From Nitrospirae bacterium CG02_land_8_20_14_3_00_41_53 (GTDB lineage Bacteria > Nitrospirota > Thermodesulfovibrionia > Thermodesulfovibrionales > SM23-35), in assembly GCA_002780895.1 (NCBI GenBank), contig PEUB01000036.1, positions 5,547 to 69,546 of the forward strand: a stretch of 64,000 nucleotides of DNA, read 5' to 3'. Made by a program: the position numbers and the translations under genes. Of this stretch, positions 2,836 through 63,160 are shown piece after piece (position 1 is the stretch's first letter; every line of letters begins with the position of its first letter). The notes under the pieces are model-generated. The model searched no databases and had not been told where the DNA came from. It worked only from the letters and a program-made list of their open reading frames with translations.

Positions 2836-4248
2836 TCTCTCAAACAACTTCACTATAATTGTATTTGATATAACTATTCCTTTTCTTGTAAGCCTGAGAT
2901 AACCTCTCTCAATCTCGAGATAACCTTCATCAACTAATTCTCTGGATGCTTGGAGTATATTTATGTCATTCCTGCGGAAGCAGGAATCCAGAGAAGTAAA
3001 AAAGCTGGATTCCGCATCAAGTGCGGAATGACAACTCTGATTCCGCGAAACTGTGATGTCAGATAGTGTATTAATGTTTATTCCTTCTGTCTTTCTCAAC
3101 TTTAAAAAAATTATTTCCTTTAATGTATCTGTTGGTGTTAGCTTGATTGATTCTATCTCAGGGATTATCCCGCTGTTCAAATCTTGTATATATCTGTTAA
3201 TATCTTCGGTATTTTTTGAACGTATTCCATTGATAAAAGAGTGGGCTCCTGCACCAACTCCGATGTACTCTCCTCTATCCCAATAATTGAGATTATGAAC
3301 GCATCTGAATCCTGGTAATGCAAAATTGGATATCTCATAGTGTTCATAGCCACAGCTTGCAAAATAATCTATTGCGTGGTTGTACATTTCAATGATCAGT
3401 TCTTCATCAGGCAATTTAATTTTATTTGCAAATTCCCCCTTACCCCCCTTTGCTAAAGTGGGGAATTTACCATTAATAATGTTTCCATCCCCATCGATGG
3501 GGGAGGGGTAGGGTGGGGGTGATTTTTTGTATTCATTTTCACCCTCCCCCTTATCCCCTCCCATCAAGGGAGGGGAAGTATAAGATATTTCGCGTTTATG
3601 TTGCGGGACGGGTTTATTAGATTTCAACAGTTTGTAAAGCGGCGTATTTTCCTCGAGTGTAAGTTCATAAGTGGAAATATGAGTTGGTGACAATTCGACT
3701 GCCGTTGAGATAGAATTATGCCAAGATTCAATCGCCTGACCTGGAACTCCATACATTAAATCAACTGAAAAATTATTTATGCCTTCTTTTTTAATTATCT
3801 CAATTGATCTTGAAGCATCTTCTGATGAATGAATCCTTCCGAGTGTTTTAAGCTCGTCATTATTAAATGATTGTATTCCAATGCTAAGCCTGTTAACCCC
3901 GAGAGAAAGCACCGTATTTATTTTAGATTCATTTATTGTCCCGGGATTTGCCTCTACTGTTATTTCAATATCAGACGAGAAACTAAAATTATCTTTCAGG
4001 CATATAAATAGTTGTTTAAAACATTCATCAGGCAATAAAGATGGTGTGCCACCTCCTGTGTAAATTGTTTTCAATGTCGTATAGAAATCTTTCTTAAGGT
4101 AAAGTTCTTGGTAGAGAGCATCAATGTATGTCTTTGCGACTGACTCATCATATGGCATAGAAAAGAAATCACAATATGTACATTTTTGAATGCAGAATGG
4201 AATGTGAATATAGAGTAAATTAGGCATGAACAGCGGACTCTGTTCCAT
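2821..4248 (-). CDS. hemW: Radical SAM HemN/HemW-family protein (oxygen-independent coproporphyrinogen oxidase-like / heme chaperone) carrying repeat-derived insertions
   Basis: ORF 2821..4281 has YIHIPFCIQKCTYCDF (CxxxCxxC) and the GGGTPS motif. It is about 100 aa longer than usual for the family because of in-frame repeat blocks at 2965..3032 and 3431..3576. The start is uncertain: ATG at 4248 or 4227, and the 4281 ATG lies inside a repeat. Confidence 0.8.
   Translation of the reverse strand: MEQSPLFMPNLLYIHIPFCIQKCTYCDFFSMPYDESVAKTYIDALYQELYLKKDFYTTLKTIYTGGGTPSLLPDECFKQLFICLKDNFSFSSDIEITVEANPGTINESKINTVLSLGVNRLSIGIQSFNNDELKTLGRIHSSEDASRSIEIIKKEGINNFSVDLMYGVPGQAIESWHNSISTAVELSPTHISTYELTLEENTPLYKLLKSNKPVPQHKREISYTSPPLMGGDKGEGENEYKKSPPPYPSPIDGDGNIINGKFPTLAKGGKGEFANKIKLPDEELIIEMYNHAIDYFASCGYEHYEISNFALPGFRCVHNLNYWDRGEYIGVGAGAHSFINGIRSKNTEDINRYIQDLNSGIIPEIESIKLTPTDTLKEIIFLKLRKTEGININTLSDITVSRNQSCHSALDAESSFFTSLDSCFRRNDINILQASRELVDEGYLEIERGYLRLTRKGIVISNTIIVKLFERLGID
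2965..3032. repeat. GTCAT...ATGAC hairpin-pair element, in-frame inside the hemW-like gene
   Basis: The left arm gtcattcctgcggaagcaggaatccag and right arm ctggattccgcatcaagtgcggaatgac are terminal inverted repeats. Each arm contains its own 8-bp hairpin. The element encodes HSALDAESSFFTSLDSCFRRND. Confidence 0.85.
3431..3576. repeat. Three GC-rich nested palindromic elements, in-frame inside the hemW-like gene
   Basis: Copies at 3431..3467 (aattccccc-tta-cccccc-tttgctaaa-gtgggg-aatt), 3486..3521 (reverse orientation) and 3540..3576 (caccctccccc-tta-tcccctccc-atcaa-gggagggga). Together they encode a Pro/Gly-rich stretch, SPPLMGGDKGEG...PPPYPSPIDGDG...LAKGGKGEF. Confidence 0.85.
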
Positions 4249-4252
4249 GATT

Positions 4253-4352
4253 GCATGCTGAACTCTTATGTTTAGACACACCCCTTAATCCCCTCTTGAT
4301 AGAGGGGAAAGAAGAAGTAGACTCCCCTCTATCAAGAGGGGCAGGGGGTGTG
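4253..4352. repeat. Composite repeat: catgctgaac module plus two inverted GC-rich palindromic elements
   Basis: The two copies cacacccc-tta-atcccctc-ttgata-gagggga and ctcccctc-tatcaa-gaggggc-a-gggggtgtg face each other. The gcatgctgaac module is also seen at 6607. Confidence 0.85.
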
Positions 4353-6606: not shown

Positions 6607-6665
6607 GTCATGCTGAACTTGTTTCAGCATCTCTTTTTCCTTCTATCAAGAGGGGATTAAGAAGG
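6607..6665. repeat. Composite repeat (gtcatgctgaac hairpin plus degenerate GC-rich palindrome)
   Basis: gtcatgctgaa-cttgt-ttcagcatc hairpin followed by ccttc-tatcaa-gaggggattaagaagg. It is homologous in layout to 4253..4352. Confidence 0.7.
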
Positions 6666-6674
6666 ATTATAATA

Positions 6675-7718
6675 TTAAAAAGCGAAATGCTGATAGCCTT
6701 CTGGTACCAAAGGTCTCTCTCTCCCTGAATTATCAATAATAACCCTTTCTGATTTTGTAATCTCTCCGATACAAAATGCCTTTGTTTTTTTATTAGGAAG
6801 TGCGGTAAACAACAGCTCATAATCTTCTCCACCTGATAAGGCTAATTTTACAGGTGAAATGCCAAGATGCGAGGCAGCTTGTTTGAGTTCAGGAGATACA
6901 GGAATATTTTCGATATATATCCTTGCACCAACCTTACTTTCGTTACAGAGCCGCGTTAAATCAATCAGAAGGCCATCGCTTATATCTATCATCGAGGTTG
7001 CATCCTTGAGAAATCTCTTTGGATCTCTTGCCTCAGGCATAAGATGTCTCCTGAGCAACGGTTCAACTACCTTCCAGGATAATTTCTCCCCAAAGAGCTT
7101 AGAGCATTGAGCATAGAGCATAGGATCTTTACTCTTAGCTCTTAGCTCTTTGCCCTTTGCTGATAGCAGAGGGACGTGTCTTTTTATCTTCTTCAGCAAT
7201 TCAAGGCCACAGGCTGAATCGCCGAGGTAGCCAGTTACATAGATTTTATCACCTATGTTTGCTCCAGAGCGTTTTATATGTTTTTTTACATATCCAATAA
7301 GTGTTGCTGATAATGATATGCCTATATTAGTAGCGGAAAGGTCACCCCCGATGAGGATAGTATCGTATAGAGTTAAAGCATCTTTAACCCCATCAAAAAA
7401 CCTATTGATAAATTTCGTATTCGTATTTTTGTTTACAGCGATATTCAGTAGAAGATAGAAAGGCTTTCCACCCATTGCATAGATATCACTTACATTAACT
7501 GATATTAACTTAAAGCCAAGCTGGTATGGGGTTGTAAAATGAAGGTTAAAATGAACCCCTTCGACCATCATGTCAGTTGTCACAAGGAGGTTTTTTCCTA
7601 ACGGCTTAACTACAGCAGCATCATCGCCTATACCGACGACAACATTTTTAGATTTCTTGTAAAAGCTTCTTCTTATCTGCTCCAAAAGGGATAGTTCGCC
7701 GATTTGAGAAAGCTTCAT
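6675..7718 (-). CDS. thiL: Thiamine-monophosphate kinase
   Basis: 347-aa ORF with AIR-synthase-like fold motifs (GDDAAVV, DMMVEGVHF, GGDLS). It contains a heptad-array insert at 7095..7164. Confidence 0.88.
   Translation of the reverse strand: MKLSQIGELSLLEQIRRSFYKKSKNVVVGIGDDAAVVKPLGKNLLVTTDMMVEGVHFNLHFTTPYQLGFKLISVNVSDIYAMGGKPFYLLLNIAVNKNTNTKFINRFFDGVKDALTLYDTILIGGDLSATNIGISLSATLIGYVKKHIKRSGANIGDKIYVTGYLGDSACGLELLKKIKRHVPLLSAKGKELRAKSKDPMLYAQCSKLFGEKLSWKVVEPLLRRHLMPEARDPKRFLKDATSMIDISDGLLIDLTRLCNESKVGARIYIENIPVSPELKQAASHLGISPVKLALSGGEDYELLFTALPNKKTKAFCIGEITKSERVIIDNSGRERPLVPEGYQHFAF
7095..7164. repeat. Heptad-phased array element (10 units of 7 nt) in-frame inside thiL
   Basis: gagctta gagcatt gagcata gagcata ggatctt tactctt agctctt agctctt tgccctt tgctgat. 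The two halves are roughly complementary. It encodes about KELRAKSKDPMLYAQCSKLF. Confidence 0.8.
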
Positions 7719-23439: not shown

Positions 23440-23443
23440 AAAA

Positions 23444-23527
23444 GAGCTAAGAGCTAAGAGCTAAGGCAAAAAACTCCATGCTCTTTGCTATTCGCTCTAT
23501 GCTAATTGCTCTTTGCTCTTTGCTAAA
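23444..23527. repeat. Heptad-phased array element (12 units of 7 nt) in the acsE-acsD spacer
   Basis: gagctaa x3, ggcaaaa, aactcca, tgctctt, tgctatt, cgctcta, tgctaat, tgctctt x2, tgctaaa. It belongs to the same family as 7095..7164, in opposite orientation. Confidence 0.85.
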
Positions 23528-28282: not shown

Positions 28283-28403
28283 GTCATTAGTTACACCCCT
28301 CACCCTAACCCTCTTCCGCAAGGGGAGAGGGGACTTATTTTATTATCCCCTCCCTTGACGGGAGGGGATAGAGGGGAGGGTGAACTACTGATGACTAATG
28401 ACT
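28283..28403. repeat. Composite TIR-bounded element filling the acsB-cooS spacer
   Basis: 10-nt perfect terminal inverted repeats agtcattagt / actaatgact enclose two GC-rich palindromes. These are 28294..28334 (cacccctcaccc-taa-ccctcttcc-gcaa-ggggagagggg) and 28343..28382 (ttatcccctccc-ttgac-gggaggggata-gaggggagggtg). Confidence 0.85.
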
Positions 28404-33325: not shown

Positions 33326-35422
33326 ATGAAAAGACTCGATAGTATTGATGACCTTATTGTCCTCCGTAACCTTCTATTAAAAGAAGGGGTATTAGCCCCT
33401 GGTAAAAAAAGGATAAAGGTTTGTTGTGGGCTTCCCTGTAGCACCTTGGGTTCCCATGAAGTTACAAAGGAATTAGAGAATGAAATCTCTAAGAACAGTC
33501 TGGATATCGAAGTGATAAAAACAGGATGCCAGGGTCTTTGCCAGAGAGGACCCCTTATAAAGACCGAACCATATAATTATTTCTATCAGAAAGTCAGTCC
33601 AGAAAAAGTAGGAGAGATTATATCTAAGACCTTTTTAGCAGGACGACCTGTAAGAGAGTGTCTTTTCAGAGATTCTTTTCTTGAGCCACCCAAAGAAGTA
33701 ACTGAAGAGATTCCTTTTTATAAGAAGCAGCTGAAGGTTGCACTCAGGAATACTGGTTGTATAGACCCGCATAGTATATCTCACTATATTGTAACCGGCG
33801 GGTATATGGCTATTGAAAAGATATTTTCCTCCATGAGCCCAGAACAAGTACTTGAGGAGGTAACAAAGGCTAACCTCAGGGGCCGGGGTGGTGCAGGGTT
33901 CCCCGCAGGGAAAAAGTGGAAACATACCAAAAGTTCTCGTTGTGACATAAAATTTGTGATAGCCAATGGTGATGAAGGTGACCCTGGCGCTTTTATGGAC
34001 AGGTCTGTCATGGAAGGTGATCCTCACAGCCTGCTCGAGGGAATGCTTATATGTGCTTATGCAATTAGTGCACATTATGGGATTATTTATGTCCGTCACG
34101 AGTACCCTCTTGCCATTAAGAATTTGGGAATAGCTATTAATCAAGCGCAGGAGCTTGGGCTTATAGGTAAAAATATCCTCGGGACAGGATTTGATTTTAC
34201 AGTTCACATAAGGGAAGGCGCGGGTGCCTTTGTGTGCGGTGAATCTACTGCTCTTATTGCATCGGTAGAAGGAGAAAGGGGTATGCCGCGACCAAGACCT
34301 CCGCGACTTTCTGAAATTGGAGGAGGGGTTTGGGGATATCCAACTAATTTGAATAATGTAGAGACTTATGCTTGTATGCCTCAAATAATCGAGAAGGGAG
34401 CCGATTGGTTCCTGAATATAGGAACAGAAAATTCACCTGGTACAAAAGTATTTTCTCTTGCAGGAAAGGTTAAAAATACAGGGCTTATTGAAGTGCCTAT
34501 GGGGATAACCCTGAGGGAGATCATATTCGATATTGGGGGAGGAATATTAAATAATAAGAAATTCAAGGCAGTGCAGACAGGAGGGCCTTCGGGCGGGTGT
34601 ATCCCTGAGCAATATCTTGATCTGCCTGTAGATTATGATTCTCTTGCAAAGGTTGGCTCAATAATGGGTTCAGGTGGAATGGTCGTAATGGATGAGGACA
34701 ACTGTATGGTAGATGTTGCTAAGTTTTTCCTCTCCTTTACACAGGCTGAGTCATGCGGGAAATGTCCTCCATGCAGGATAGGTACATACCAGATGCTCCA
34801 AATCCTCGAAAAGATAACATTAGGCAATGGAGAGGAAGGAGATATAGGAAAACTTGAAAGGTTTGGGAAACTTGTAAAGGCAGGTTCCCTCTGTGGTCTT
34901 GGCCAGAATGCACCAAACCCTGTTCTTACGACCATCAAATATTTCCGTGAAGAATACGAAGAGCATATAAGAGATAAATATTGCAGGGCAAAGGTCTGCA
35001 CCGGACTCGGATTACTCTCAATAAACACTGAAATCTGCTACCAGTGTATGCGCTGCATGGATACATGTCCATTTGAGGCAATAAAAGAATCCAGGGAAGG
35101 TGGATTTTATATAGACCAGGTGCTCTGCCAGAGATGTAAGGCATGCTATATGGCATGTCCCTTAGGCGCTATAGAGATTAAAGAACAGCCCTTTACCTAT
35201 ATAGATACAGAGCTATGCTATCTCTGCGGCCGCTGTAAAGATGTATGCAGGATTAATGCAATAAAGGAAACTTCAACCGGATTCATGATAGATCGCTTTG
35301 TATGTAGGAAGTGCGGTGATTGTTACAATATATGCCCTATGGGAGCTGTGAGGTTTGAGAAAAGAACCCACCCCCCTGTGTCCCCCCTTAGTAAGGGGGG
35401 AATTAAAGAGGGGTGCCCTTAG
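33326..35422 (+). CDS. Second NuoF/HydB-like subunit (tandem paralog) with C-terminal polyferredoxin extension
   Basis: 698 aa with the same core motifs as the upstream paralog. Four CxxCxxCxxxCP-type clusters follow at the C-terminus. The last ~17 aa (HPPVSPLSKGGIKEGCP) are encoded by a GC-rich palindromic repeat. Confidence 0.88.
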   Translation: MKRLDSIDDLIVLRNLLLKEGVLAPGKKRIKVCCGLPCSTLGSHEVTKELENEISKNSLDIEVIKTGCQGLCQRGPLIKTEPYNYFYQKVSPEKVGEIISKTFLAGRPVRECLFRDSFLEPPKEVTEEIPFYKKQLKVALRNTGCIDPHSISHYIVTGGYMAIEKIFSSMSPEQVLEEVTKANLRGRGGAGFPAGKKWKHTKSSRCDIKFVIANGDEGDPGAFMDRSVMEGDPHSLLEGMLICAYAISAHYGIIYVRHEYPLAIKNLGIAINQAQELGLIGKNILGTGFDFTVHIREGAGAFVCGESTALIASVEGERGMPRPRPPRLSEIGGGVWGYPTNLNNVETYACMPQIIEKGADWFLNIGTENSPGTKVFSLAGKVKNTGLIEVPMGITLREIIFDIGGGILNNKKFKAVQTGGPSGGCIPEQYLDLPVDYDSLAKVGSIMGSGGMVVMDEDNCMVDVAKFFLSFTQAESCGKCPPCRIGTYQMLQILEKITLGNGEEGDIGKLERFGKLVKAGSLCGLGQNAPNPVLTTIKYFREEYEEHIRDKYCRAKVCTGLGLLSINTEICYQCMRCMDTCPFEAIKESREGGFYIDQVLCQRCKACYMACPLGAIEIKEQPFTYIDTELCYLCGRCKDVCRINAIKETSTGFMIDRFVCRKCGDCYNICPMGAVRFEKRTHPPVSPLSKGGIKEGCP
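35367..35415. repeat. GC-rich nested palindromic element forming the 3' end of the NuoF-2 gene
   Basis: cccacccccc-tgt-gtcccccc-ttagtaa-gggggg-aattaaa-gaggggtg. The stop codon is at 35420..35422. Confidence 0.8.
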
Positions 35423-38312: not shown

Positions 38313-38759
38313 TTACCTTATTGCCTTGAGCAGTTCTTTTTCTTTTCTCTCCATTTTATTCTTTCGATACCTGCTTTTTTCGTGGTCATAATCAATGAGA
38401 TGAAGGAGGCCGTGGATTAGGAGTTTTTTAAGTTCTTCATTAAAGGTATGTCCGTACTCTGATGCCTGTCTTTTAGCCTGATGAAGATTTATGATTATAT
38501 CACCCAAAACAAATTGCTGAGAGCTGAGAGCTGAGAGCTGAGAGCTATATTCAATTTGAGGGAATGAAAGCACATCCGTGGTTCTGTCCACGCCCCTGTA
38601 CTGACGGTTCAGTATCCTCATTCTCCTATCATTTACAAAAAGGATACTGAGTTCAGCCTTGTGGAGGCCGAGCAGGCGGAGTGCCTTCCTTAGAAGACTT
38701 TTTATTCTCTGCTGATTTACCTTTAAGAGTCTTTGGCAGTTCTTTATATAGACCTTCAT
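38313..38759 (-). CDS. ybeY: Endoribonuclease YbeY (rRNA maturation)
   Basis: HGLLHLIDYDH zinc motif. The start is placed at ATG 38759 (MKVYIKN). It contains heptad array 38514..38548. Confidence 0.9.
   Translation of the reverse strand: MKVYIKNCQRLLKVNQQRIKSLLRKALRLLGLHKAELSILFVNDRRMRILNRQYRGVDRTTDVLSFPQIEYSSQLSALSSQQFVLGDIIINLHQAKRQASEYGHTFNEELKKLLIHGLLHLIDYDHEKSRYRKNKMERKEKELLKAIR
38514..38548. repeat. Heptad tandem array, ttgctga (gagctga)x3 gagctat, inside ybeY
   Basis: Direct 7-nt tandem repeats encoding SSQLSALSSQQ in a variable loop of YbeY. Confidence 0.85.
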
Positions 38760-46778: not shown

Positions 46779-47470
46779 TTCAGCCCTCTTCGCCTCGGTC
46801 GTCTCAGGTGACTCGCCGAGGACAGCGAATTGGACGACTCCGATAATGCCCTTTTAAATCTTATATTATTTAAGTGGCATAAAGCGAGGGCTAGGGCATC
46901 TGCACTGTCGTTAGTGAGATTCGCGATTTGTGATTTGAGATTTAAGATTTTCATTACCATATCCTGAACCTGCCTTTTTTCGGCCATTCCATAACCGGTG
47001 ACAGCTTTTTTAACCTCGAGTGCACTGTATTCATAGACATTTAGATCCTCTGATGCAGCTGCAAGAAGTGCAATTCCCCTTGTCTGTCCGAGGCTTAATG
47101 CAGCCCTTACATTTTTTGCAAAAAACATACTTTCAACTGCCATTTCCTGAGGTCTATATTCCCTGATAATATCTATGAGGGAATCATAAAGTTTTTTTAA
47201 TCGCAGATGCAGCGGACTTTTTGGTGGTAAAGTAATTCTCCCTGAGGCGATGTAAGTGCAGTTTGGCTTGTTCGTTTGCAAGCTTGAAATCCTGCCAGCT
47301 TTTTGAGCATTGACTGTGGTTATAAGTCCATAACCGCACATGACACTGCCTGGATCGATACCGAGGATTCTAAATTCATCTACCTCATTGTAAGTCGATA
47401 CCGACCGATGCGAACTATTTTTTCCTTGGTACCTCAAAGAGTATCTCTTCCACCATCTGGCAGATGACAT
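46775..47470 (-). CDS. ruvC: Holliday junction resolvase RuvC (N-terminus uncertain)
   Basis: RILGIDPGS and DSADALALALCH catalytic motifs. The ORF has a 20-30 aa extension before the usual M-x-ILGIDPG start. Candidate starts are ATG 47470 or TTG 47434. It contains a heptad array at 46916..46950. Confidence 0.85.
   Translation of the reverse strand: MSSARWWKRYSLRYQGKNSSHRSVSTYNEVDEFRILGIDPGSVMCGYGLITTVNAQKAGRISSLQTNKPNCTYIASGRITLPPKSPLHLRLKKLYDSLIDIIREYRPQEMAVESMFFAKNVRAALSLGQTRGIALLAAASEDLNVYEYSALEVKKAVTGYGMAEKRQVQDMVMKILNLKSQIANLTNDSADALALALCHLNNIRFKRALSESSNSLSSASHLRRPRRRGLK
46916..46950. repeat. Heptad-phased array (gagattc gcgattt gtgattt gagattt aagattt) inside ruvC
   Basis: Five 7-nt units read directly from the sequence. 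They encode KILNLKSQIANL. Confidence 0.75.
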
Positions 47471-48652: not shown

Positions 48653-49627
48653 TTATCTATATGGGATAAAAACTATATTTCTTATTTCTGCAGGGAGGCT
48701 TTCTTTTGAAGGGCCAAGAGCAGTTACTCTGTAACTCCTCTTGGTTGATGGTTTATCTTTGTCAAGGAATGCAGGGGTCTGGGTATCTCCAATAAATATA
48801 AAACCCTCTTGCTTATTTATCTCTCTGTAAACCTTGTAACCAACTACCCATGTATCAGGAGATTCTTTCCAGCTGAGATATACATTCTCCTTTTTAACTA
48901 TTGCCTGAAGGCCTGAGGGAGAAGATGGCACAAATTCCAAAGGATTTATCTCAACCTCTCCTGAGGCAGGTCCTTCGTCCCTTATATCGGAACCTACAAG
49001 GCTTCTTATTGTATAGTAAACATGCCCTTTTATTGCAAAGTTATCCCTGAATGAGGTTTCCTTAATTGGTTCTTTATGCACAGGCATTAAACGGTATATG
49101 CCTTTCTCATTACTTTTATAGATGTTATAAAGGATTCTATCTCCCGCACTTTCCCAGTTCAATGTCAGAGAGTCATGTTCTACCTTAAATAGAATTTTTC
49201 CGGGAGGGGGAGGTACGGTTTCAGGATCAATTTGTATGATATTTGAGTCATTACTTATTACATTTTTCAGATTCTGGGAAACGATTTTATATTTGTATTT
49301 AGAGCCTATTTTAAAATCATTATCTATATAAGACCGCTTATTATTTTCAAGGGTGGCGATCTTTTCAAAATCCCCACCTGTTGATTTCATCAGGTAAAAT
49401 CCTTTTATTGCTGGTTCTTTATCTTTTGGAAATTCCCACAGGAGGATAATCTCTGATTCTCTGTGGACGGCCCTGAGCGCAGAAGGCGGATCCGGCTTTT
49501 CGTATGATTTGAGTGTAGGGTCACCTTTTTTGCCACATGAGGGGAGTAAACAGTAAACAGTAAATAGTAAACAAAAGATAAAAAGACCAAATCTGACTTC
49601 TGACTTCTGTATTCTGAGTTCTATCAT
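48653..49627 (-). CDS. Lipoprotein with beta-sandwich (Fn3-like) repeats, function unknown
   Basis: 324 aa. The N-terminus MIELRIQKSEVRFGLFIFCLLFTVYCLLPSCG (signal peptide plus lipobox Cys) is encoded entirely by heptad arrays. Confidence 0.7.
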   Translation of the reverse strand: MIELRIQKSEVRFGLFIFCLLFTVYCLLPSCGKKGDPTLKSYEKPDPPSALRAVHRESEIILLWEFPKDKEPAIKGFYLMKSTGGDFEKIATLENNKRSYIDNDFKIGSKYKYKIVSQNLKNVISNDSNIIQIDPETVPPPPGKILFKVEHDSLTLNWESAGDRILYNIYKSNEKGIYRLMPVHKEPIKETSFRDNFAIKGHVYYTIRSLVGSDIRDEGPASGEVEINPLEFVPSSPSGLQAIVKKENVYLSWKESPDTWVVGYKVYREINKQEGFIFIGDTQTPAFLDKDKPSTKRSYRVTALGPSKESLPAEIRNIVFIPYR

Positions 49628-52793: not shown

Positions 52794-55611
52794 TTTTCAC
52801 CTCCACATCTTTAAGCATTTTAATACTTTCTAAAATCCTTTTCTTTATAATTATCAGTTCTTCATATTTTGCTTTTTCCTTATCAATAATCTCTCTGGGC
52901 GCCCTCTGGAGGAAGTCCTCATTAAAGAGTTTCCTGTTCAAAGACACGATAGACACATCTACCTTTGCCTCCTCTTTCTTAAGTCTATCGACTTCTGCAG
53001 TAATATTCAAGACCCCTTTAAGAGGAACATATATCTCCATAGAACTCTTAACAGAGGTTGCAGAGCACTCTGGCTTCTCAATGTTCATACCTATCTTAAT
53101 TTCGCCAGCCTTTGCAAGGTTTTTGAGATATTGTACGTTTTCCTTCAATATTTTCTCTGCCATTTGAGAAAATGTCTTTATTGACACATTGAGTTTAAGT
53201 GATGGTGATATGTTCAGCTCCCCTCTGATGGTTCTTATTCCCATTACAGCCTCTATGATATATGACATGTCTTCTTCAGCCTGGTAGTCTCTTGGTAAAG
53301 ACTTCGGATAATCTGAGACCATAATACTCTCCTTAATTGCTGAATGCTGAATTTTTATCGTCTGCCAAATCTCCTCTGTAACAAAGGGCATAAAAGGATG
53401 CAGCAGCCGTAAGGATGTATCGAGTGTATGCAGGAGACACCATCTGACGCCAGTTTGTGAGTTTAGGGTTCGGGGTTCGGAGTTTCCATCCCCTCCCTTG
53501 CCCTCCCCCCTCGAGAGGGAGGGTTGGGTGGGTGGGTTGATTTCGGATTTCGCCATCTCAAGATACCAGTCACAGAATTCATGCCATACGAACTGGTATA
53601 TACTACTTGCTGCGTCATTAAACCGATATTCTTCGAGTGCCCTGTTTATATCATCTGCTATAGCGGCAAGTCTGCTCAATATCCATTTACTTGCAAGATC
53701 ATGAGGCGTGTGAGTAATCCTCTCAACCCCTTCTTTTTCAAATCCCCCCTTACCCCCCTTTTCTAAAGGGGGGGTGGGGGGATTAGTATTCATCATAATG
53801 AATCTTGCTGCGTTCCAAAGCTTATTTACAAAATGCCTGTACCCTTCAACCCTTTTTTCCGAAAACTTAATATCGCGCCCCTGTGCAGTAAAAGCAGCAA
53901 GTGTAAACCTGAATGCATCTGTACCGTATCTGTCTATCATTATCAAAGGATCAACAACATTACCTTTTGATTTAGACATCTTCTGGCCTTTCAGATCCCT
54001 GACGAGTGCATGTATATAAACATCCCTGAAAGGCACGTCTCCCATGAATTTAAGTCCCATCATTATCATCCTTGCGACCCAGAAAAAGATTATATCGAAC
54101 CCTGTCACAAGAACGCTTGTAGGATAGAAGGTCTTAAGATCGTCAGTATTATCAGGCCAGCCAAGGGTAGAAAATGGCCATAGGGCAGACGAAAACCATG
54201 TATCGAGTACATCTTCATCCTGAATCAATTCTTCTGAGCTACAGTAAGGACATACTTGTGGTACATCTCTTGATACTATAACTCCATTTTGCATTTTGCA
54301 TTTTGCATTTTGCATTTTCTGACAGTACCATACAGGTATTCTGTGTCCCCACCATATCTGACGGGATATGCACCAGTCTTTTATATCTTCCATCCATGCA
54401 AAATATGTATTCTCCCATGTTTTAGGTATGATGTTAATTTTTCCCTCTTTAACTACCCTGATAGCATCTTTAGCAATGGACTGTACATTCACATACCACT
54501 GAGGTGTTGACAGCGGCTCGGTAATAGTCTTGCATCTGTAACAGTGGCCTACAGCATATTTGTACAACTCCTCTTTTTCTAAAAGATTAAGTACCTTCAA
54601 ATCTTTAATGACAAGTTTTCTGCACTCATATCTATCCAGACCTGCATATCTGTTTCCTGCATTTACTGTCATAAGACCATCGGCCCCGATCACGGTTATG
54701 AATTCTAAAGGTGGGATCTGTTTTTTTGCTATAGCCTCGTCATTAAAATCATGGGCTGGTGTTACCTTTACTGCGCCTGTACCAAAAGAAGGGTCTACTG
54801 CATGATCAGAAATAATAAGGATTTTTCTGTCAGTTAGAGGCAGGTTTATAGTTTTACCAATGAATTTTTGGTATCTGCTGTCTTCAGGGTTTACAGCCAC
54901 AGCAGTATCTCCGAGCATCGTCTCAGGCCTGGTAGTTGCTACAGTTATATACCCCCTCTTATTATCCCCCCCCCTTGCTAAGGGGGGGATAGGGGGGGTT
55001 AGTGGATACTTTATGTAAGTCAGCTTTCCTTCTAATTCCTCGTATTCTACCTCGAGGTCGGAAAGCGCGGTGTTACAGCGGGGGCACCAGTTTATAAGCC
55101 GGTTATCCCTGTATATCAGACCTTCCTCATAAAGTCTTACAAAAACCTCTCTTACAGCCTTTGAAAGCCCATCATCAAGTGTAAACCTTTCCCTTGACCA
55201 GTCACATGAAGCGCCGAGCCTTTTAAGCTGGTGGATTATCTTTCCACCGTATTCGGCCTTCCATTTCCATACACGCTCTATAAAGGCATTACGGCCGAGT
55301 TTATCCCTATCAAGTCCCGTAGATGCGAGCTGCTTTTCTACAACGTTCTGTGTAGCAATGCCTGCATGGTCAGTGCCTGGCAGCCATAGGACTTTATAAC
55401 CTGACATACGCTTCCAGCGAGAGAGTATATCCTGTAGTACCGTATTAAGGGCATGGCCCATGTGGAGAGAACCTGTAATATTCGGAGGGGGTATTACTAA
55501 AGAGTAAAAACTGCCTTTGAGGTCCGGGTCTGGCTTAAAATATCCTTTTGAGACCCAGTATTCATACCACCTTTCTTCTATACCTTGCGGATTGTAGCCT
55601 TTTTCTAAAAT
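52783..55611 (-). CDS. valS: Valyl-tRNA synthetase carrying five in-frame repeat insertions
   Basis: The ORF-track start (ATG 55461) is the Met of the HIGH motif (PPPNITGSLHMGHA). The frame continues upstream through ILEKGYNPQGIEERWYEYW to the stop at 55636..55638 with no ATG/GTG/TTG. The candidate start is ATT at 55611..55609, 5 nt after TAAGG. KMSKS motif and C-terminal coiled coil are present. Confidence 0.9.
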   Translation of the reverse strand: MLEKGYNPQGIEERWYEYWVSKGYFKPDPDLKGSFYSLVIPPPNITGSLHMGHALNTVLQDILSRWKRMSGYKVLWLPGTDHAGIATQNVVEKQLASTGLDRDKLGRNAFIERVWKWKAEYGGKIIHQLKRLGASCDWSRERFTLDDGLSKAVREVFVRLYEEGLIYRDNRLINWCPRCNTALSDLEVEYEELEGKLTYIKYPLTPPIPPLARGGDNKRGYITVATTRPETMLGDTAVAVNPEDSRYQKFIGKTINLPLTDRKILIISDHAVDPSFGTGAVKVTPAHDFNDEAIAKKQIPPLEFITVIGADGLMTVNAGNRYAGLDRYECRKLVIKDLKVLNLLEKEELYKYAVGHCYRCKTITEPLSTPQWYVNVQSIAKDAIRVVKEGKINIIPKTWENTYFAWMEDIKDWCISRQIWWGHRIPVWYCQKMQNAKCKMQNGVIVSRDVPQVCPYCSSEELIQDEDVLDTWFSSALWPFSTLGWPDNTDDLKTFYPTSVLVTGFDIIFFWVARMIMMGLKFMGDVPFRDVYIHALVRDLKGQKMSKSKGNVVDPLIMIDRYGTDAFRFTLAAFTAQGRDIKFSEKRVEGYRHFVNKLWNAARFIMMNTNPPTPPLEKGGKGGFEKEGVERITHTPHDLASKWILSRLAAIADDINRALEEYRFNDAASSIYQFVWHEFCDWYLEMAKSEINPPTQPSLSRGEGKGGDGNSEPRTLNSQTGVRWCLLHTLDTSLRLLHPFMPFVTEEIWQTIKIQHSAIKESIMVSDYPKSLPRDYQAEEDMSYIIEAVMGIRTIRGELNISPSLKLNVSIKTFSQMAEKILKENVQYLKNLAKAGEIKIGMNIEKPECSATSVKSSMEIYVPLKGVLNITAEVDRLKKEEAKVDVSIVSLNRKLFNEDFLQRAPREIIDKEKAKYEELIIIKKRILESIKMLKDVEVKNDP
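53452..53537. repeat. Heptad array (53452..53486) abutting a GC-rich nested palindrome (53487..53537), in-frame in valS
   Basis: agtttgt gagttta gggttcg gggttcg gagtttc, then catcccctccc-ttg-ccctcccccc-tcgag-agggaggg-ttg-ggtgggtggg. Encodes PPTQPSLSRGEGKGGDGNSEPRTLNSQTG. Confidence 0.85.
53741..53784. repeat. GC-rich nested palindrome in-frame in valS
   Basis: aatcccccc-tta-cccccc-ttttctaaa-gggggg-gt-gggggg-att. Encodes PPTPPLEKGGKGGF. Confidence 0.9.
54284..54318. repeat. Heptad tandem array, ccatttt then (gcatttt)x4, in-frame in valS
   Basis: Tandem 7-nt units. On the coding strand they read (aaaatgc)n and encode CQKMQNAKCKMQNG. Confidence 0.9.
54951..54999. repeat. GC-rich nested palindrome in-frame in valS
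   Basis: accccctc-ttat-tatccccccc-cttgctaag-ggggggata-gggggggt. Encodes TPPIPPLARGGDNKRG just before the ATTRPETMLGDTAVAV motif. Confidence 0.9.
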
Positions 55612-59487: not shown

Positions 59488-60429
59488 ATGTTTATGGATT
59501 TAAATACTATGAAACTGAGAAGGCCAACCATCATGTTGTTCTTATTATTTTTCCTTACTTTTATGAATACTCTTTATGCCGAACCCAATAAGATCCAGAC
59601 AAAAGAAGTCATAGTCATTTTTGAGGAGCCATTAGAAAACGTGGCTAAAGATGTAGTGAAGGTATACCCTGCTGTTAAAGCAGATCTCGTTGCAACCCTC
59701 GATTGGAAGGTTGATGTCAGACCAGATGTAATTCTGGTTAAAGATAAAAGCACCCTAATGAAAATGGTCGGAAGCGATATAATTATTGCATTTGCTATCC
59801 CTGACAGAAATCTTATTGTACTTGATACCTCAAGGATATATACCAGGCCCTTTACCCTTGAGGCAACACTCAAGCACGAGTTATGTCATATCCTTTTGCA
59901 CAGCAATATCAAAAACGATAGACTGCCCAGATGGCTTGACGAGGGGGTCTGCCAATGGGCAAGCGGAGGGATTGCAGAGCTTATAGCAGACGACGGGGAC
60001 AGTGCGATTACAAAAGCTACAATTTCTGACAGTACAATAAGCATAGGGGATCTCATAAGATTTCCTCGCGATGAAAAGTCTCTTCTTCTTGCGTATGAGG
60101 AAAGCAAAAGCATCGTGGAATATATCGTCAGTGAGTACGGCAAGCAAGGGATTTTACAGATACTTGAATATCTGAAAGAAGGGCATTCTATAGACGATTC
60201 TATCCAGAAAAGTCTTTCTGTCAGTACTTCCGAACTTGAGATTAAGTGGCTTGTATATCTAAAAAGAAAGCATACTTGGTTTTCATATTTAAGCTACAAC
60301 ATCTACACAATCCTCTTTTTCCTCGCCGCTGTGATTACTGTATATGGTTTTATAAGATTGCTGAAAAAGAAAAGGGCTTATGTTGATGAGGATGAAGAGA
60401 AGGGTAGGGGGGGTGGAAACACATCCTGA
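59488..60429 (+). CDS. Putative membrane-anchored zinc metallopeptidase (HExxH)
   Basis: N-terminal signal/TM, HELCHILLH motif and a C-terminal TM helix (IYTILFFLAAVITVYGFI). The start may be ATG 59509. Confidence 0.55.
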   Translation: MFMDLNTMKLRRPTIMLFLLFFLTFMNTLYAEPNKIQTKEVIVIFEEPLENVAKDVVKVYPAVKADLVATLDWKVDVRPDVILVKDKSTLMKMVGSDIIIAFAIPDRNLIVLDTSRIYTRPFTLEATLKHELCHILLHSNIKNDRLPRWLDEGVCQWASGGIAELIADDGDSAITKATISDSTISIGDLIRFPRDEKSLLLAYEESKSIVEYIVSEYGKQGILQILEYLKEGHSIDDSIQKSLSVSTSELEIKWLVYLKRKHTWFSYLSYNIYTILFFLAAVITVYGFIRLLKKKRAYVDEDEEKGRGGGNTS

Positions 60430-60490
60430 AAGTAATATAGAAAGTACTATAGTAAAAAAAGTAGTAAAATAGGGACACATCCCATTTTAC

Positions 60491-60519
60491 TTGACATCCA
60501 AGACTATAGTCGTTAAACT
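60491..60519 (+). promoter_or_regulatory. Candidate promoter giving a leaderless RAYT transcript
   Basis: TTGACA (60491..60496), 17 nt, then TAAACT (60514..60519). The ATG at 60525 is only 5 nt downstream and has no SD. Confidence 0.35.
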
Positions 60520-60524
60520 TCCCA

Positions 60525-61196
60525 ATGCCAAGGATCGGTAGAGCGGTTGCACCGGGCTATCCGCACCATGTCATTCAAAGAGGAAATAACAAAGAGCATG
60601 TCTTCTTTGAAAAAGAAGACCGAGAGCAGTATCTGTCATTGCTAAAGAAATATGCCTTCAAGTGGAACTCTCCGATTATGGCCTACTGCCTGATGAGCAA
60701 TCATGTCCATTTGCTGACAAAGCCGGAAACGAACGAATCGTTGTTTAAGATGATGCAGGGACTCACTCTCTGCTACACGCAACATATAAATAGGACGTAT
60801 GAGAGGACAGGCAGATTGTGGGAAAGTCGCTATCATTCATGCATTGTGGATCATGAGAAATACCTGTGGGCGGTTGCACGGTATATCGAGCAAAATCCGG
60901 TTAGGGCAAAGATGGTTGAGAGAGCCGAAGACTATGCCTATTCAAGTGCCCGATCTCATGTAAAGGGCAGCGAGGATCCTGTTCTGGGAGAAGACCTATT
61001 TAGCAATGACGTACGAAAGGACTATATACTCCTGCTGCGCTCTGATATGCCTGAAAAAGAAATTGAGAGGTTGCGCTATGCTACAAAAACGGGAAGACCT
61101 CTTGGCAGTGCGGAGTTTGTGGTCGAGATGGAAAAGAAGCTTGAAAGAAGGCTTTTGCAACGCCCGAAGGGAAGACCGAGGAAGAAATGCCGTTAA
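60525..61196 (+). CDS. REP-associated tyrosine transposase (RAYT; IS200-like Y1 transposase family)
   Basis: 223 aa with YHVIQRGN-type start (PHHVIQRGNNKEHVF), HUH motif MSNHVHLL and catalytic-Tyr region WAVARYIEQNPVRAKMV. The C-terminus is basic, ending GRPRKK. Confidence 0.85.
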   Translation: MPRIGRAVAPGYPHHVIQRGNNKEHVFFEKEDREQYLSLLKKYAFKWNSPIMAYCLMSNHVHLLTKPETNESLFKMMQGLTLCYTQHINRTYERTGRLWESRYHSCIVDHEKYLWAVARYIEQNPVRAKMVERAEDYAYSSARSHVKGSEDPVLGEDLFSNDVRKDYILLLRSDMPEKEIERLRYATKTGRPLGSAEFVVEMEKKLERRLLQRPKGRPRKKCR

Positions 61197-61335
61197 AATG
61201 GGATGTGTCCCTATTTTCAATTTTCTATTTTCACTATTTTCAAGAAAAAAAGCGATCCTGATCGGAAATAGAAAAATTCTATTCCCTATTTTTGGTTCTT
61301 CAGAGAATTGTGTGGAAGGTGCATACCCAAAAAAA

Positions 61336-61368
61336 CCCTCCCCTAACCCCTCCCATCGAGGGAGGGGG
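61336..61368. repeat. GC-rich nested palindrome (intergenic)
   Basis: ccctcccc-taa-cccctccc-atcga-gggaggggg. Confidence 0.8.
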
Positions 61369-61460
61369 ACTAATTTGGAAGACTCCTTTCAAGGACAGGG
61401 GCTAATAGCGGTCTCTACAGAAAAGTCTGAAGGACCTTTTTATTGGGTAGCTTTGTTTAG

Positions 61461-61490
61461 TTGACTTTGAATACAGACGCTGTTTAAACT
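61461..61490 (+). promoter_or_regulatory. Candidate promoter giving a near-leaderless argS transcript
   Basis: TTGACT (61461..61466), 18 nt, then TAAACT (61485..61490). The ATG at 61499 is 8 nt downstream and has no SD. Confidence 0.35.
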
Positions 61491-61498
61491 CTATTTCC

Positions 61499-63160
61499 AT
61501 GAAAAAAGAACTCGTAAAAGTAATTGAGGATTCACTTAAAGCACTCGGTCTGGAGACAATCCCTTCTATTGAGGCAGAAGTTCCACCTAACGATTCTATG
61601 GGCGATTTGGCAACGCCTGTAGCAATGTCCATAGCGGCATTACTAAAAAAATCTCCGAGAAAGATAGCAGAAGAACTTATAAATTCCATTAAAGACTTGT
61701 CTGCAAAGGCAGGTAAATCTGCCTTTGAGAAGATAGATATTGCAGGTCCTGGATTCATTAACTTTACATTCTCAAAAGAATATCTGTATTCAGAGATTAA
61801 GAAATTAATTGAGTATAAAAGCGGATTTTTGAGGGAGGATATTGGTAAAGGCAGAAGGGTCCAGATTGAATTCATTAGTGCAAATCCGACAGGCCCGCTC
61901 CATCTTGGACATGGAAGGGGTGGTGCTACAGGTGAAGCCCTCTCAAATCTTCTTAATGCTGCAGGATATAAGGTTGAGCGTGAGTATTATATAAACGATG
62001 CAGGTAAGCAGGTAAAACTCCTCGGTTTATCCGTATTTGCCCGCTATCAGCAATTGCTTGGGATAGAATATCCGTTTCCAGAGGAAGGGTATAAAGGTGG
62101 ATATATAGAGGATGTCGCAAATGAGATAATTAAAGAAAATGGCAAAAAATTCCTTCAGAGAAGCTTTGAAGCAGTATCAGATTTCTTCATTGATTATTCT
62201 TACAGGATGATTTTGTCCGGTATAAAAAAAGATTTAAAGGATTTTGGTATTAATTTTGATACATGGCAGAGTGAAGAAGAACTATACAAAAAAGGAGATG
62301 TAGAAGAAGCTATTGAAGATCTCAAAATAAAGGGTTTTATATATGAAAAAGATGGTGCAACATGGTTCAGATCAACAGCATTTGGAGATGACAAAGACAG
62401 GGTTATTATAAAACAGGATGGCGAGTATACATATTTCACTTCTGACATCGCATACCATAAGAAGAAAATAGAGAAGACATATGATGAGCTAATTGATATA
62501 TGGGGCGCTGACCACCATGGTTATATCCCAAGGGTTAAGGCTGTCATTGAGGCACTGGGCTATCCAAAAGAGAAATTAAAGGTTTTACTTGTACAGATGG
62601 TTAATCTGCTGAGAGGCGGGAAACCTGTCCAGATGTCAAAAAGGGCAGGTGAGTTCGTAACGTTGAGAGAGGTTATGAATGAAGTTGGTCCAGATACAAC
62701 AAAATTTATATTCCTTACAAGAAGACCTGACAGCCATCTCGATTTTGACCTTGAAGTTGCAAAAGCACAGTCATCAGAAAACCCTGTTTTTTATGTACAA
62801 TATGCAAATGCAAGGATAAACAGCATATTTACCCATGCAAAAGAAAAAGGTATCAATACAGACAGGCTTTATGATGCAGACCTCATGCTATTATCTGTTT
62901 ATGATGAACTCAGGATAATCAGGAAGCTCCTTATCTATCCGATGGTATTTGAAGGCGCTGTCAATACCTATGAGCCGCACAGGATTACATTCTACCTGCA
63001 AGAAATTTCTGGCATGTTTCATCCTTACTACAATAAATTCAGGGTTGTAAGCGATGATATTGAACTGACCAGGGCAAGACTTGCTCTGTGTGGAGCTATA
63101 AGGATTGTACTCCAGGATGGTCTTGAGATACTCGGTATAAGTGCCCCCGAGAAGATGTGA
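61499..63160 (+). CDS. argS: Arginyl-tRNA synthetase
   Basis: 553 aa with SANPTGPLHLGHGR (HIGH), an MSKR-type loop (QMSKRAG) and a C-terminal DALR anticodon-binding domain ending in M. Confidence 0.95.
   Translation: MKKELVKVIEDSLKALGLETIPSIEAEVPPNDSMGDLATPVAMSIAALLKKSPRKIAEELINSIKDLSAKAGKSAFEKIDIAGPGFINFTFSKEYLYSEIKKLIEYKSGFLREDIGKGRRVQIEFISANPTGPLHLGHGRGGATGEALSNLLNAAGYKVEREYYINDAGKQVKLLGLSVFARYQQLLGIEYPFPEEGYKGGYIEDVANEIIKENGKKFLQRSFEAVSDFFIDYSYRMILSGIKKDLKDFGINFDTWQSEEELYKKGDVEEAIEDLKIKGFIYEKDGATWFRSTAFGDDKDRVIIKQDGEYTYFTSDIAYHKKKIEKTYDELIDIWGADHHGYIPRVKAVIEALGYPKEKLKVLLVQMVNLLRGGKPVQMSKRAGEFVTLREVMNEVGPDTTKFIFLTRRPDSHLDFDLEVAKAQSSENPVFYVQYANARINSIFTHAKEKGINTDRLYDADLMLLSVYDELRIIRKLLIYPMVFEGAVNTYEPHRITFYLQEISGMFHPYYNKFRVVSDDIELTRARLALCGAIRIVLQDGLEILGISAPEKM

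Follow-up and report, generated by a model that had tools for sequence, protein, structure and literature searches.

We found that the 64,000-nucleotide (nt) window analysed here, the whole stretch taken from contig PEUB01000036.1 of a Nitrospirota bacterium, carries a family of short C-rich repeats whose loci, taken as a whole, are probably copies of the G/C-rich intrastrand triplex motif repeat called BoxC, PIT or TMECO, a mobile-like repeat that may spread independently of the neighbouring Y1 transposase. The sequence was read at each of the listed coordinates (3431, 3486, 3540, 4277/4322, 6634, 28294/28343, 35367, 53487, 53741, 54951 and 61336), and a repeat copy was present at all 13. Every copy follows the same plan, in which C-rich box A is joined by a short linker to C-rich box B, followed by a loop and a G-rich complement of box B (B′); a closing G-rich block (A′) was present in some copies only.

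The C-Rich Repeats Resemble the BoxC/PIT/TMECO Triplex Motif

BoxC was reportedly first described upstream of fabI/envM in Escherichia coli; its name is said to go back to Bergler in 1992 and Bachellier in 1999, and that of the PIT elements to Hoyne and Maher in 2000. The arrangement box A-TTA-box B-loop-B′ is the reverse complement of the published TMECO pattern, 5′-CCCTCNCCC N3-6 GGGNGAGGG N3 GGGNGAGGG-3′ (Holder et al. 2015, NAR 43:10126, PMC4666352), and the block order of BoxC/PIT/TMECO (a pyrimidine stem, a loop, a purine stem, a linker of ~3 nt and a second purine block) was found in reverse-complemented form in 13 of 13 copies. The unit at 28294 is one base away from the published pattern and is identical to an E. 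coli BoxC copy at 39 of 40 positions. In blastn searches, the 51-nt first unit of this locus (28290-28340) matched 5359 of 5426 E. coli genomes, in which the median number of matching places was 15; the similarity was 86% over 51 nt and reached 97.5% over 40 nt. The longer segment 28290-28388 matched 420 plasmid records (BLAST), including those of Klebsiella, Sinorhizobium, Azospirillum and E. coli. Copies seen in E. coli between flgH and flgG and upstream of fabI/envM have the sequence CCCCTCACCC-TAA-CCCTCTCCC-loop-GGGAGAGGG. The features under the matches also suggested intragenic copies in Azospirillum, which we rejected since the match merely touches the btsR stop codon.

In E. coli, BoxC is listed as a 56-bp element with 32 copies (PMC2267715). 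For TMECO, the formation of an intrastrand triplex in vitro was shown by circular dichroism and nuclear magnetic resonance, and 3610 copies were counted in 262 proteobacterial genomes; the 23 copies of MG1655 are “always located intergenically”, some of them as inverted tandems (PMC4666352). The E. coli copies are unassociated with mobile-element genes, no transposase or integrase remnants were seen nearby, and sequence variability is raised locally around them. Earlier tests of the motif in E. coli found neither promoter nor terminator activity, and its origin and mechanism were left unanswered by Holder et al. (all PMC4666352).

The window copies are like the BoxC/PIT/TMECO elements in their three-block plan, in the TAA/TTA linker, in their occurrence both as single units and as inverted pairs, in having no transposase linked to them, in lying in locally variable regions and, for one unit, in the 39/40 identity. 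They differ in their location, since 7 of the 13 window copies lie in frame within genes whereas those of MG1655 are always intergenic, and in their density, which is ~0.2 per kb in the window versus ~0.005 per kb in E. coli. The stems are mostly CCCCTCCC or poly-C in the window and CCCTCNCCC in TMECO, and the host is a Nitrospirota bacterium of 41% G+C, whereas TMECO has been reported from Proteobacteria.

A scan with the CCCCTCCC hairpin also recovered full inverted doublets, with box A CACCCTCCCC, on three IMG/VR contigs classed as viral (L155, L156 and L157; 58-61% G+C), whose source organisms are much richer in G+C. The presence of complete doublets with an identical box A on these contigs shows that the family is not restricted to one lineage.

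Census and Anatomy of the Repeat Family

The first-pass annotation of this DNA had claimed at least 14 copies sharing one consensus. All 13 of its coordinates hold a copy, and the fourteenth item is a G-rich half copy at 60402-60420. The copies and the features that carry them are as follows.

3426-3611, - strand: in-frame block of 186 nt (62 codons) in the HemW gene, with three units in alternating orientation, like a bacterial interspersed mosaic element (BIME) cluster.
3431-3467, + strand: unit in HemW, its stem being poly-C and its B′ arm degenerate; peptide KFPTLAKGGKGEF.
3486-3522, - strand: unit of opposite orientation in HemW; peptide SPPPYPSPIDGDG; its G-rich half consists of four G-tracts in a run.
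3539-3576, + strand: single unit in HemW, TCACCCTCCCCC-TTA-TCCCCTCCC-ATCAA-GGGAGGGGA; peptide SPPLMGGDKGEG.
4277-4352, unstranded: inverted doublet in the spacer that separates lepA (stop at 4396) from hemW (start at 4248), two genes of the - strand; it consists of box A CACACCCC, TTAA, the hairpin TCCCCTCT-TGAT-AGAGGGGA, a 14-nt spacer, the inverse hairpin, CA and A′ GGGGGTGTG.
6638-6668, - strand: degenerate unit of the 4277 subfamily (listed as 6634), 6 nt downstream of the stop of an AIR-synthase-related gene.
6675-7718, - strand: AIR-synthase-related gene, upstream of the degenerate unit.
28294-28383, unstranded: inverted doublet in the spacer that separates the ACS beta-subunit gene (stop 28278) from the CODH gene (start 28419).
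35367-35415, + strand: nested unit forming the last 18 codons (THPPVSPLSKGGIKEGCP) of a NuoF-like gene (33326-35422).
53486-53539, unstranded: nested unit at valS site 3, amino acids (aa) 642-663; the shared unit reaches ~53463-53544.
53741-53784, unstranded: nested poly-C unit at valS site 2, aa 560-578; AATCCCCCC-TTA-CCCCCCTTT-TCT-AAAGGGGGG-GT-GGGGGGATT.
54951-54999, unstranded: nested poly-C unit at valS site 1, aa 155-170, with a 3-nt loop that is inverted compared to that of close relatives.
60402-60420, - strand: half copy with the G-rich sequence GGGTAGGGGGGGTGGAAAC, located at the Peptidase_MA_2 gene's 3′ end.
61335-61368, + strand: single intergenic unit between a Y1 transposase-like gene and argS; ACCCTCCCC-TAA-CCCCTCCC-ATCGA-GGGAGGGGG; boxes A and B mirror each other perfectly.

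The half copy at 60402-60420 may be akin to the B′-A′ end of the valS site-3 unit, to judge from their resemblance only.

A rule-based scan with shuffled controls was used instead of a covariance model, MAFFT being unable to register the variable loops. A strict rule (a 7-bp C/T arm with at least five C, no G and at most one mismatch, a loop of 3-9 nt and a flanking C-box or G-box) returned 11 loci in the window, whereas 40 dinucleotide-preserving shuffles gave 0.05 loci on average and never more than 1. This bears out the claim of a single family as opposed to unrelated G/C runs. The rule was failed by 28294, which has a bulged stem and is related by sequence to 28343, and by the degenerate copy at 6634, which is related to 4277/4322 and has the loop and stem TCCCCTCT-TGAT-AGA in common with them. 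An Rfam scan of the window returned only a tRNA above threshold.

The units are G/C-rich and 31-54 nt long, with loops of 3-5 nt and linkers of 2-4 nt; the linker is TTA or TAA in 6 of the 13 copies and TA, TTAA or another short sequence in the remainder. Two types of stem were found, one reading CCCCTC(C/T), with the loops ATCAA, ATCGA or TGAT, and the other being poly-C, with loops such as TTT-NCT-AAA. The copies had been said to occur often in pairs or composites, and we indeed observed three arrangements, namely lone units, inverted doublets that fold like REPINs, and “collapsed” doublets that correspond to nested palindromes, an organization resembling that of repetitive extragenic palindromic (REP) sequences and BIMEs. 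When folded as single-stranded DNA, the 4277-4352 doublet gives one long hairpin (-32.4 kcal/mol, z = -9.4), and the 28294-28383 doublet has a z of -4.9.

In most units, boxes A and B are mirror images of each other, with 7-9 matches over 8-10 positions (8/8 at 61335 and 8/9 at 3539). Over five stem variants, the T residues of box B fall on a non-C of box A in 24 of 28 cases in the mirror register and the C residues fall on a C in 78 of 81 (Fisher p = 6e-17), whereas no association between the boxes was found in the direct register (p = 0.6). The 4277 subfamily has an A where a T is expected in the mirror register, as do the E. coli copies. Both the complementarity of the hairpin and the mirror symmetry are thus preserved through five different stem variants. 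The nested palindrome of the earlier description is in fact a combination of a mirror repeat and an inverted repeat. The G-rich halves at 3495-3523, 28359-28382 and 53513-53539 have at least four G-tracts (e.g., GGGAGGGTTGGGTGGGTGGG), and so are also canonical G-quadruplex motifs that could compete with hairpin or triplex folding.

Copies inside Genes Are in Frame and Free of Stop Codons

Genes contain seven of the 13 copies: HemW and valS have three each, and one copy ends the NuoF-like gene; all seven are in frame and stop-free. This agrees with the initial estimate that half of the copies are in coding sequence, and the remark that such a location is unusual for REP/BIME-type elements was correct; rare intragenic REPs of other families are known, including in tRNA synthetase genes (PMC3733652).

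In ValRS, the inserts read TPPIPPLARGGDNKRG (aa 155-170), NPPTPPLEKGGKGGFEKEG (aa 560-578) and NPPTQPSLSRGEGKGGDGNSEP (aa 642-663), and all three sites are gaps relative to the ValRS of T. thermophilus (1GAX). Similarly, the homology of HemW to PDB structures stops at aa 225, where the insert starts, and the NCBIfam HemW profile matches in two stretches, of which the first stops at aa 224. The AlphaFold model of ValRS, a poor one with a mean predicted local distance difference test score (pLDDT) of 61, places coil with a pLDDT below 50 at residues 162-168, 562-583 and 645-663, which weakly suggests that the inserts are low-confidence coils located between the strands of a pair or between helices. 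The peptides of the in-gene copies, such as NPPTPPLEKGGKGGFEK, are predicted from translation of the DNA.

Single and nested units are open in two to six of the six frames, mostly in three to six, whereas the doublets are open in only one or two. The copies survive in essential genes because their C- and G-runs read as stop-free Pro...Gly peptides, and we infer that only copies with a length that is a multiple of three, located in variable loops, are retained there. In the assembly collection, 80 blocks index an identical ValRS protein, and 24 contigs carrying it were read; the in-gene inserts are therefore no assembly artefact.

A possible extra element at the 5′ end of valS was rejected, as the CCCCTCC at 55484 encodes the conserved PPP of the synthetase. 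At 55605-55611, valS overlaps the upstream response-regulator gene, with an ATT at 55611 lying over the TAG stop, and this rare ATT is probably the valS start. The NCBI models of ValRS have 942 aa, while translation from the first ATG would give 892 aa and drop ~50 conserved N-terminal residues.

HemW also contains a second, unrelated double-hairpin repeat in frame (2967-3030, - strand; CATTCCGCA..TGCGGAATCC / GGATTCCTGC..GCAGGAATG, peptide SCHSALDAESSFFTSLDSCFRRND). At this site, most relatives carry a C-rich palindrome instead and two are empty, which points to an insertion hot spot.

Units Are Gained, Lost and Rearranged among Relatives

Comparison with relatives showed that the family behaves as a dispersed DNA element that is gained and lost, nested into and rearranged. 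Of 120 ValRS orthologue clusters, 19 have a unit at site 1, seven at site 2 and two at site 3, where one more has a nested insert; site 4, located after EEIWQxI, is filled in six clusters and empty in the window. The site-3 unit is absent in P0003-5. An 82-nt unit is common to site 3 of the window and site 4 of the relatives L088 and L089, with 83-88% identity and in the same reading frame, and at site 2 the relative L150 (93% nt identity) has an unrelated linker. A ValRS-based contig scan yielded only relatives of at most 70% identity among the matches listed, and was of little use for close comparison. The sites bearing units in both valS and hemW are hypervariable.

In the closest HemW orthologues (80-84% identity), the 186-nt block is missing, and LYKLIK is directly joined to SHKIDMPDE. 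AATAAA stands at both junctions of the block (3426-3611), and a single CATAAA is found at the empty site. A further filled/empty pair was found in an fn3-like lipoprotein gene, in which L151 (95% nt identity) carries a poly-C unit at a site that is empty in the window (~49379), in L150 and in L089. The sequence is TCAACAGGTGGGGATTTTGAAAAG at the empty site and TCAAGCTCCTCTACCCCCCCCTTAGAAAAGGGGGGCTGGGGGGATTTTGAAAAG at the filled site of L151. This amounts to 30 nt gained net, in frame and with no target duplication; ~9 nt are replaced, with homology to the target on both sides, and the target before insertion was already akin to the 3′ end of the element. On this sequence comparison, the L151 unit is a recent gain. 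By contrast with this gain, the 4277-4352 doublet is old, since it is retained in the relative L152 (92% nt identity) with two substitutions.

Rearrangement was seen at valS site 1, where the 3-nt apical loop (54970-54980) is GCT in L088, L089, L150 and L151 and its reverse complement, AGC, in the window; the overall identity is 93-95%, and the change is an inversion of the hairpin loop.

In addition, a 24-nt G/C hairpin, CCCGCCTGCCRTCCGTCGGGCAGG, is nested in C-rich units of relatives at valS site 3 (L150, 11860-11883) and in hemW (L154, 1102-1125). The two insertions are in opposite orientations, add 8 codons each, and show no target duplication and at most 2 nt of junction ambiguity; the hairpin was not found in the window or in the viral contigs. 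Elhai and colleagues reportedly described, in 2008, small dispersed repeats of cyanobacteria that are hairpins of ~21-27 nt, mutually nested and possible in genes. They are a parallel to the nested 24-nt hairpin, although the sequences and hosts differ.

The Neighbouring Y1 Transposase-Like Gene Has Its Own Terminal Repeats

One transposase-like gene lies next to copies of the family, and no other transposase was found in the 64-kb window.

60525-61196 (within the region 60468-61243): Y1/IS200-like, RAYT-like transposase gene, matching Pfam Y1_Tnp and NCBIfam REP_Tyr_transpos.

The gene scores 73 bits against the REP_Tyr_transpos cut-off of 80. The unit at 61335 lies 140 nt downstream of it, and the half copy, in inverse orientation, ~100 nt upstream. 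We retrieved 59 homologue loci (178 kb), of which 37 are full-length, with 50-92% identity. All 37 of these share terminal repeats of their own with a GGGACACATCCC core (AATAGGGACACATCCCATTTT on one side and AAATGGGATGTGTCCCTATTT on the other), which occur only twice in the window, and no C-rich palindrome was present in any of the 59 loci. L150 and L089 carry C-rich elements without the Y1 gene at this locus; a 229-aa open reading frame beside the peptidase gene in L089 was considered as a RAYT homologue and discarded, as it has no similarity. Given the gene's own terminal repeats, the lack of the C-rich palindrome and the relatives without the gene, we treated the adjacency as a coincidence and rejected a link between the C-rich repeats and this gene. 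The association with a transposase that had been put forward for testing was thus negative for the sole Y1 transposase gene of the window. Under the nomenclature that Di Nocera et al. 2013 (PMC3733652) use, the Y1 gene is a tyrosine transposase with terminal inverted repeats (“TIRYT”) and not a REPtron.

The terminal repeats of the Y1 element are inverted, the left one has a TTGACA box, and “stuttered” tandem repeats of 7-9 nt lie just beyond both ends of the element (here 61213-61243). The homologues (loci L091-L138) have the same ends, and many lie on very short contigs, as is usual for multi-copy elements. The spacer that separates argS from Peptidase_MA_2 (60430-61500) is a variable hot spot, with the Y1 gene in the window, ParE/antitoxin and DUF2283 genes in L150 (3100-4680) and TIR- and PIN-domain genes in L089 (2100-4730).

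Other Explanations and a Possible Mode of Spread

Another possibility is that the repeats are REP/REPIN elements that the RAYT-like Y1 (HUH) transposase at 60525-61196 moves in trans, with RAYT standing for REP-associated tyrosine transposase. Such enzymes bind hairpins of single-stranded DNA, the gene matches both Y1_Tnp and REP_Tyr_transpos (73 versus 80 bits), a unit and an inverse half copy flank it in a REPtron-like manner, and the doublets fold like REPINs. The REP/BIME/REPIN systems with RAYTs (Bertels & Rainey 2011, PMC3116915; Di Nocera et al. 2013, PMC3733652) also consist of short, imperfect G/C-rich palindromes, form long hairpins from inverted doublets and clusters of alternating orientation, and lie mostly downstream of genes. 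However, the GTAG/CGTC tag is absent from the elements, standing at no fixed position in the aligned window copies; the copies have an extra mirror-repeat block; and the RAYT-like gene is flanked by unrelated terminal repeats and not by the C-rich repeat. Those repeats are carried by 37/37 full-length homologue loci and occur just twice in the window, the C-rich palindrome is missing from all 59 loci (178 kb), L150 and L089 have the elements without the gene, and the E. coli motif has neither a transposon association nor transposase/integrase remnants (PMC4666352). Hence, the comparison with REP/BIME elements made at the outset is sound for the arrangement of the copies but fails for classical REPs, and mobilisation by this transposase is improbable. 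It is, if anything, slightly less probable that the units are transposable elements of the miniature inverted-repeat type (MITEs), cut and pasted with target duplication by a DDE transposase, for which AATCCCCCC/GGGGGGATT or TCACCC/GGGTGA would be the recognised ends. The ends of the elements are inverted repeats, and the 6-bp direct repeat AATAAA surrounds the HemW block with a single CATAAA at the empty site, but the L151 gain occurred without duplication, with ~9 nt replaced and target homology on both sides, and the nested 24-nt insertions leave at most 2 nt of junction ambiguity. Moreover, units of 34-54 nt are far below the usual MITE size, and no DDE transposase is encoded in the 64-kb window.

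A role as host signals (stabilisers of mRNA 3′ ends, attenuators, binding sites, or hot spots of replication or recombination), with the in-gene copies as by-products, would account for the intergenic copies that follow closely on stops in co-directional gene pairs (16 nt for ACS, 6 nt for the AIR-synthase-related gene and 44 nt for lepA) and for the conservation of the 4277-4352 doublet in a relative; in addition, E. coli copies mark locally variable regions (PMC4666352), and the valS and hemW sites are hypervariable. Yet 7 of the 13 copies are intragenic, the hairpins are not followed by a T-run, and the promoter and terminator tests in E. coli were negative (summarised in PMC4666352), so that we regard this role as unlikely for the family, although it is compatible with a selfish repeat. 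Finally, the copies in genes encode PP..GG peptides in loops that AlphaFold renders as coil with a pLDDT below 50, as expected of Pro/Gly linkers selected at the protein level or of chance low-complexity C/G runs. This explanation is already refuted by the intergenic copies and by the cross-species DNA identity, the 28294 unit being 39/40 identical to non-coding DNA of E. coli; the occurrence of the same DNA in intergenic spacers and in both orientations, the 11 strict copies against 0.05 expected, and complementarity and mirror symmetry held over five stem variants, also oppose it, and we give it almost no weight.

The Rickettsia palindromic elements (RPE), as presented in the part of PMC3733652 that cites Ogata et al. 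2000, resemble the window units in being palindromic, in lying in frame within functional or essential genes, to which they add short peptides, and in a presence or absence that varies among orthologues, here those of ValRS, HemW and the fn3-like gene. By the same account, they differ in being 100-150 nt long, A/T-rich, confined to Rickettsia and without a triplex-type mirror block, whereas the window units are 31-54 nt and G/C-rich.

In the BoxC/PIT/TMECO reading, by analogy with the E. coli motif, B and B′ would pair as a Watson-Crick hairpin, and the third block may lie in its groove as a triplex. Spread may be independent of the neighbouring Y1 transposase, and could tentatively be ascribed to copy-in by replication or repair (template switching or microhomology-guided patching) or to an enzyme acting in trans. 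The insertion junctions show short homologies (AATAAA; GGGGATTTTGAAAAG), which fit a copy-in by replication or repair. As a mirror repeat cannot be made by complementary-template copying, the three-block unit would be either propagated whole or held by selection for the triplex. A more general proposal, that BoxC-type triplex motifs are mobile, pan-bacterial, tiny DNA elements copied in under the guidance of structure or microhomology, whose horizontal spread explains the 39/40 identity between Nitrospirota and E. coli, is conceivable but rather doubtful.

Several points weigh against the assignment to BoxC/PIT/TMECO and a mobile-like behaviour. The exact published TMECO pattern matches nothing in the window, most copies having CCCCTCCC or poly-C stems instead of CCCTCNCCC, and the similarity across phyla could be due to convergence on structure and not to common descent. 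Triplex formation by the window units is a prediction, as only hairpin folding was computed here. The mirror test is near-trivial for poly-C stems, and, with the copies sharing descent, the Fisher value of 6e-17 exaggerates their independence. No donor copy, transposition intermediate or enzyme was found, and the insertion route is based on three junctions. The translation of the in-gene copies is deduced from open frames and conserved peptides, and the AlphaFold model that places the ValRS inserts is poor (mean pLDDT 61).

Host Context and Significance

The host is an uncultured Nitrospirota bacterium represented by a metagenome-assembled genome from Crystal Geyser. An identical valS product is present in NCBI under “Nitrospirae bacterium CG2_30_41_42” and in sister Crystal Geyser bins, with homologues labelled Thermodesulfovibrionales. 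The window contains housekeeping and Wood-Ljungdahl genes. It also has heptanucleotide tandem repeats, several of them in genes (7094-7161, 23442-23526, 38516-38546, 46915-46950, 49545-49622, 53466-53484 and 54285-54318); CATTTTG x4.9 encodes AKCKMQNAKCKMQN in ValRS, and the heptamers recall the short tandemly repeated heptamers of cyanobacteria. Our literature searches, whose coverage was incomplete so that absence is unproven, found no description of the family in Nitrospirota.

We conclude that this is a known kind of element with a new behaviour, namely a BoxC-type motif in a Nitrospirota host, with a high density, in-frame copies in essential genes and clean filled/empty pairs. BoxC/PIT/TMECO has been known in E. 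coli since the 1990s, and its function and origin are still unexplained. Beyond what E. coli offers, this lineage provides dense copies, insertion boundaries that can be read per codon, filled and empty sites at 83-95% identity, and nested insertions, which allow direct tests of how the element spreads and which targets it prefers. To judge from the coding sequences, essential enzymes may tolerate Pro/Gly-rich inserts of 12-60 residues derived from structure-forming DNA. If BoxC-type motifs are indeed a pan-bacterial mobile class without a dedicated transposase, such elements could colonise even essential coding sequences in frame.

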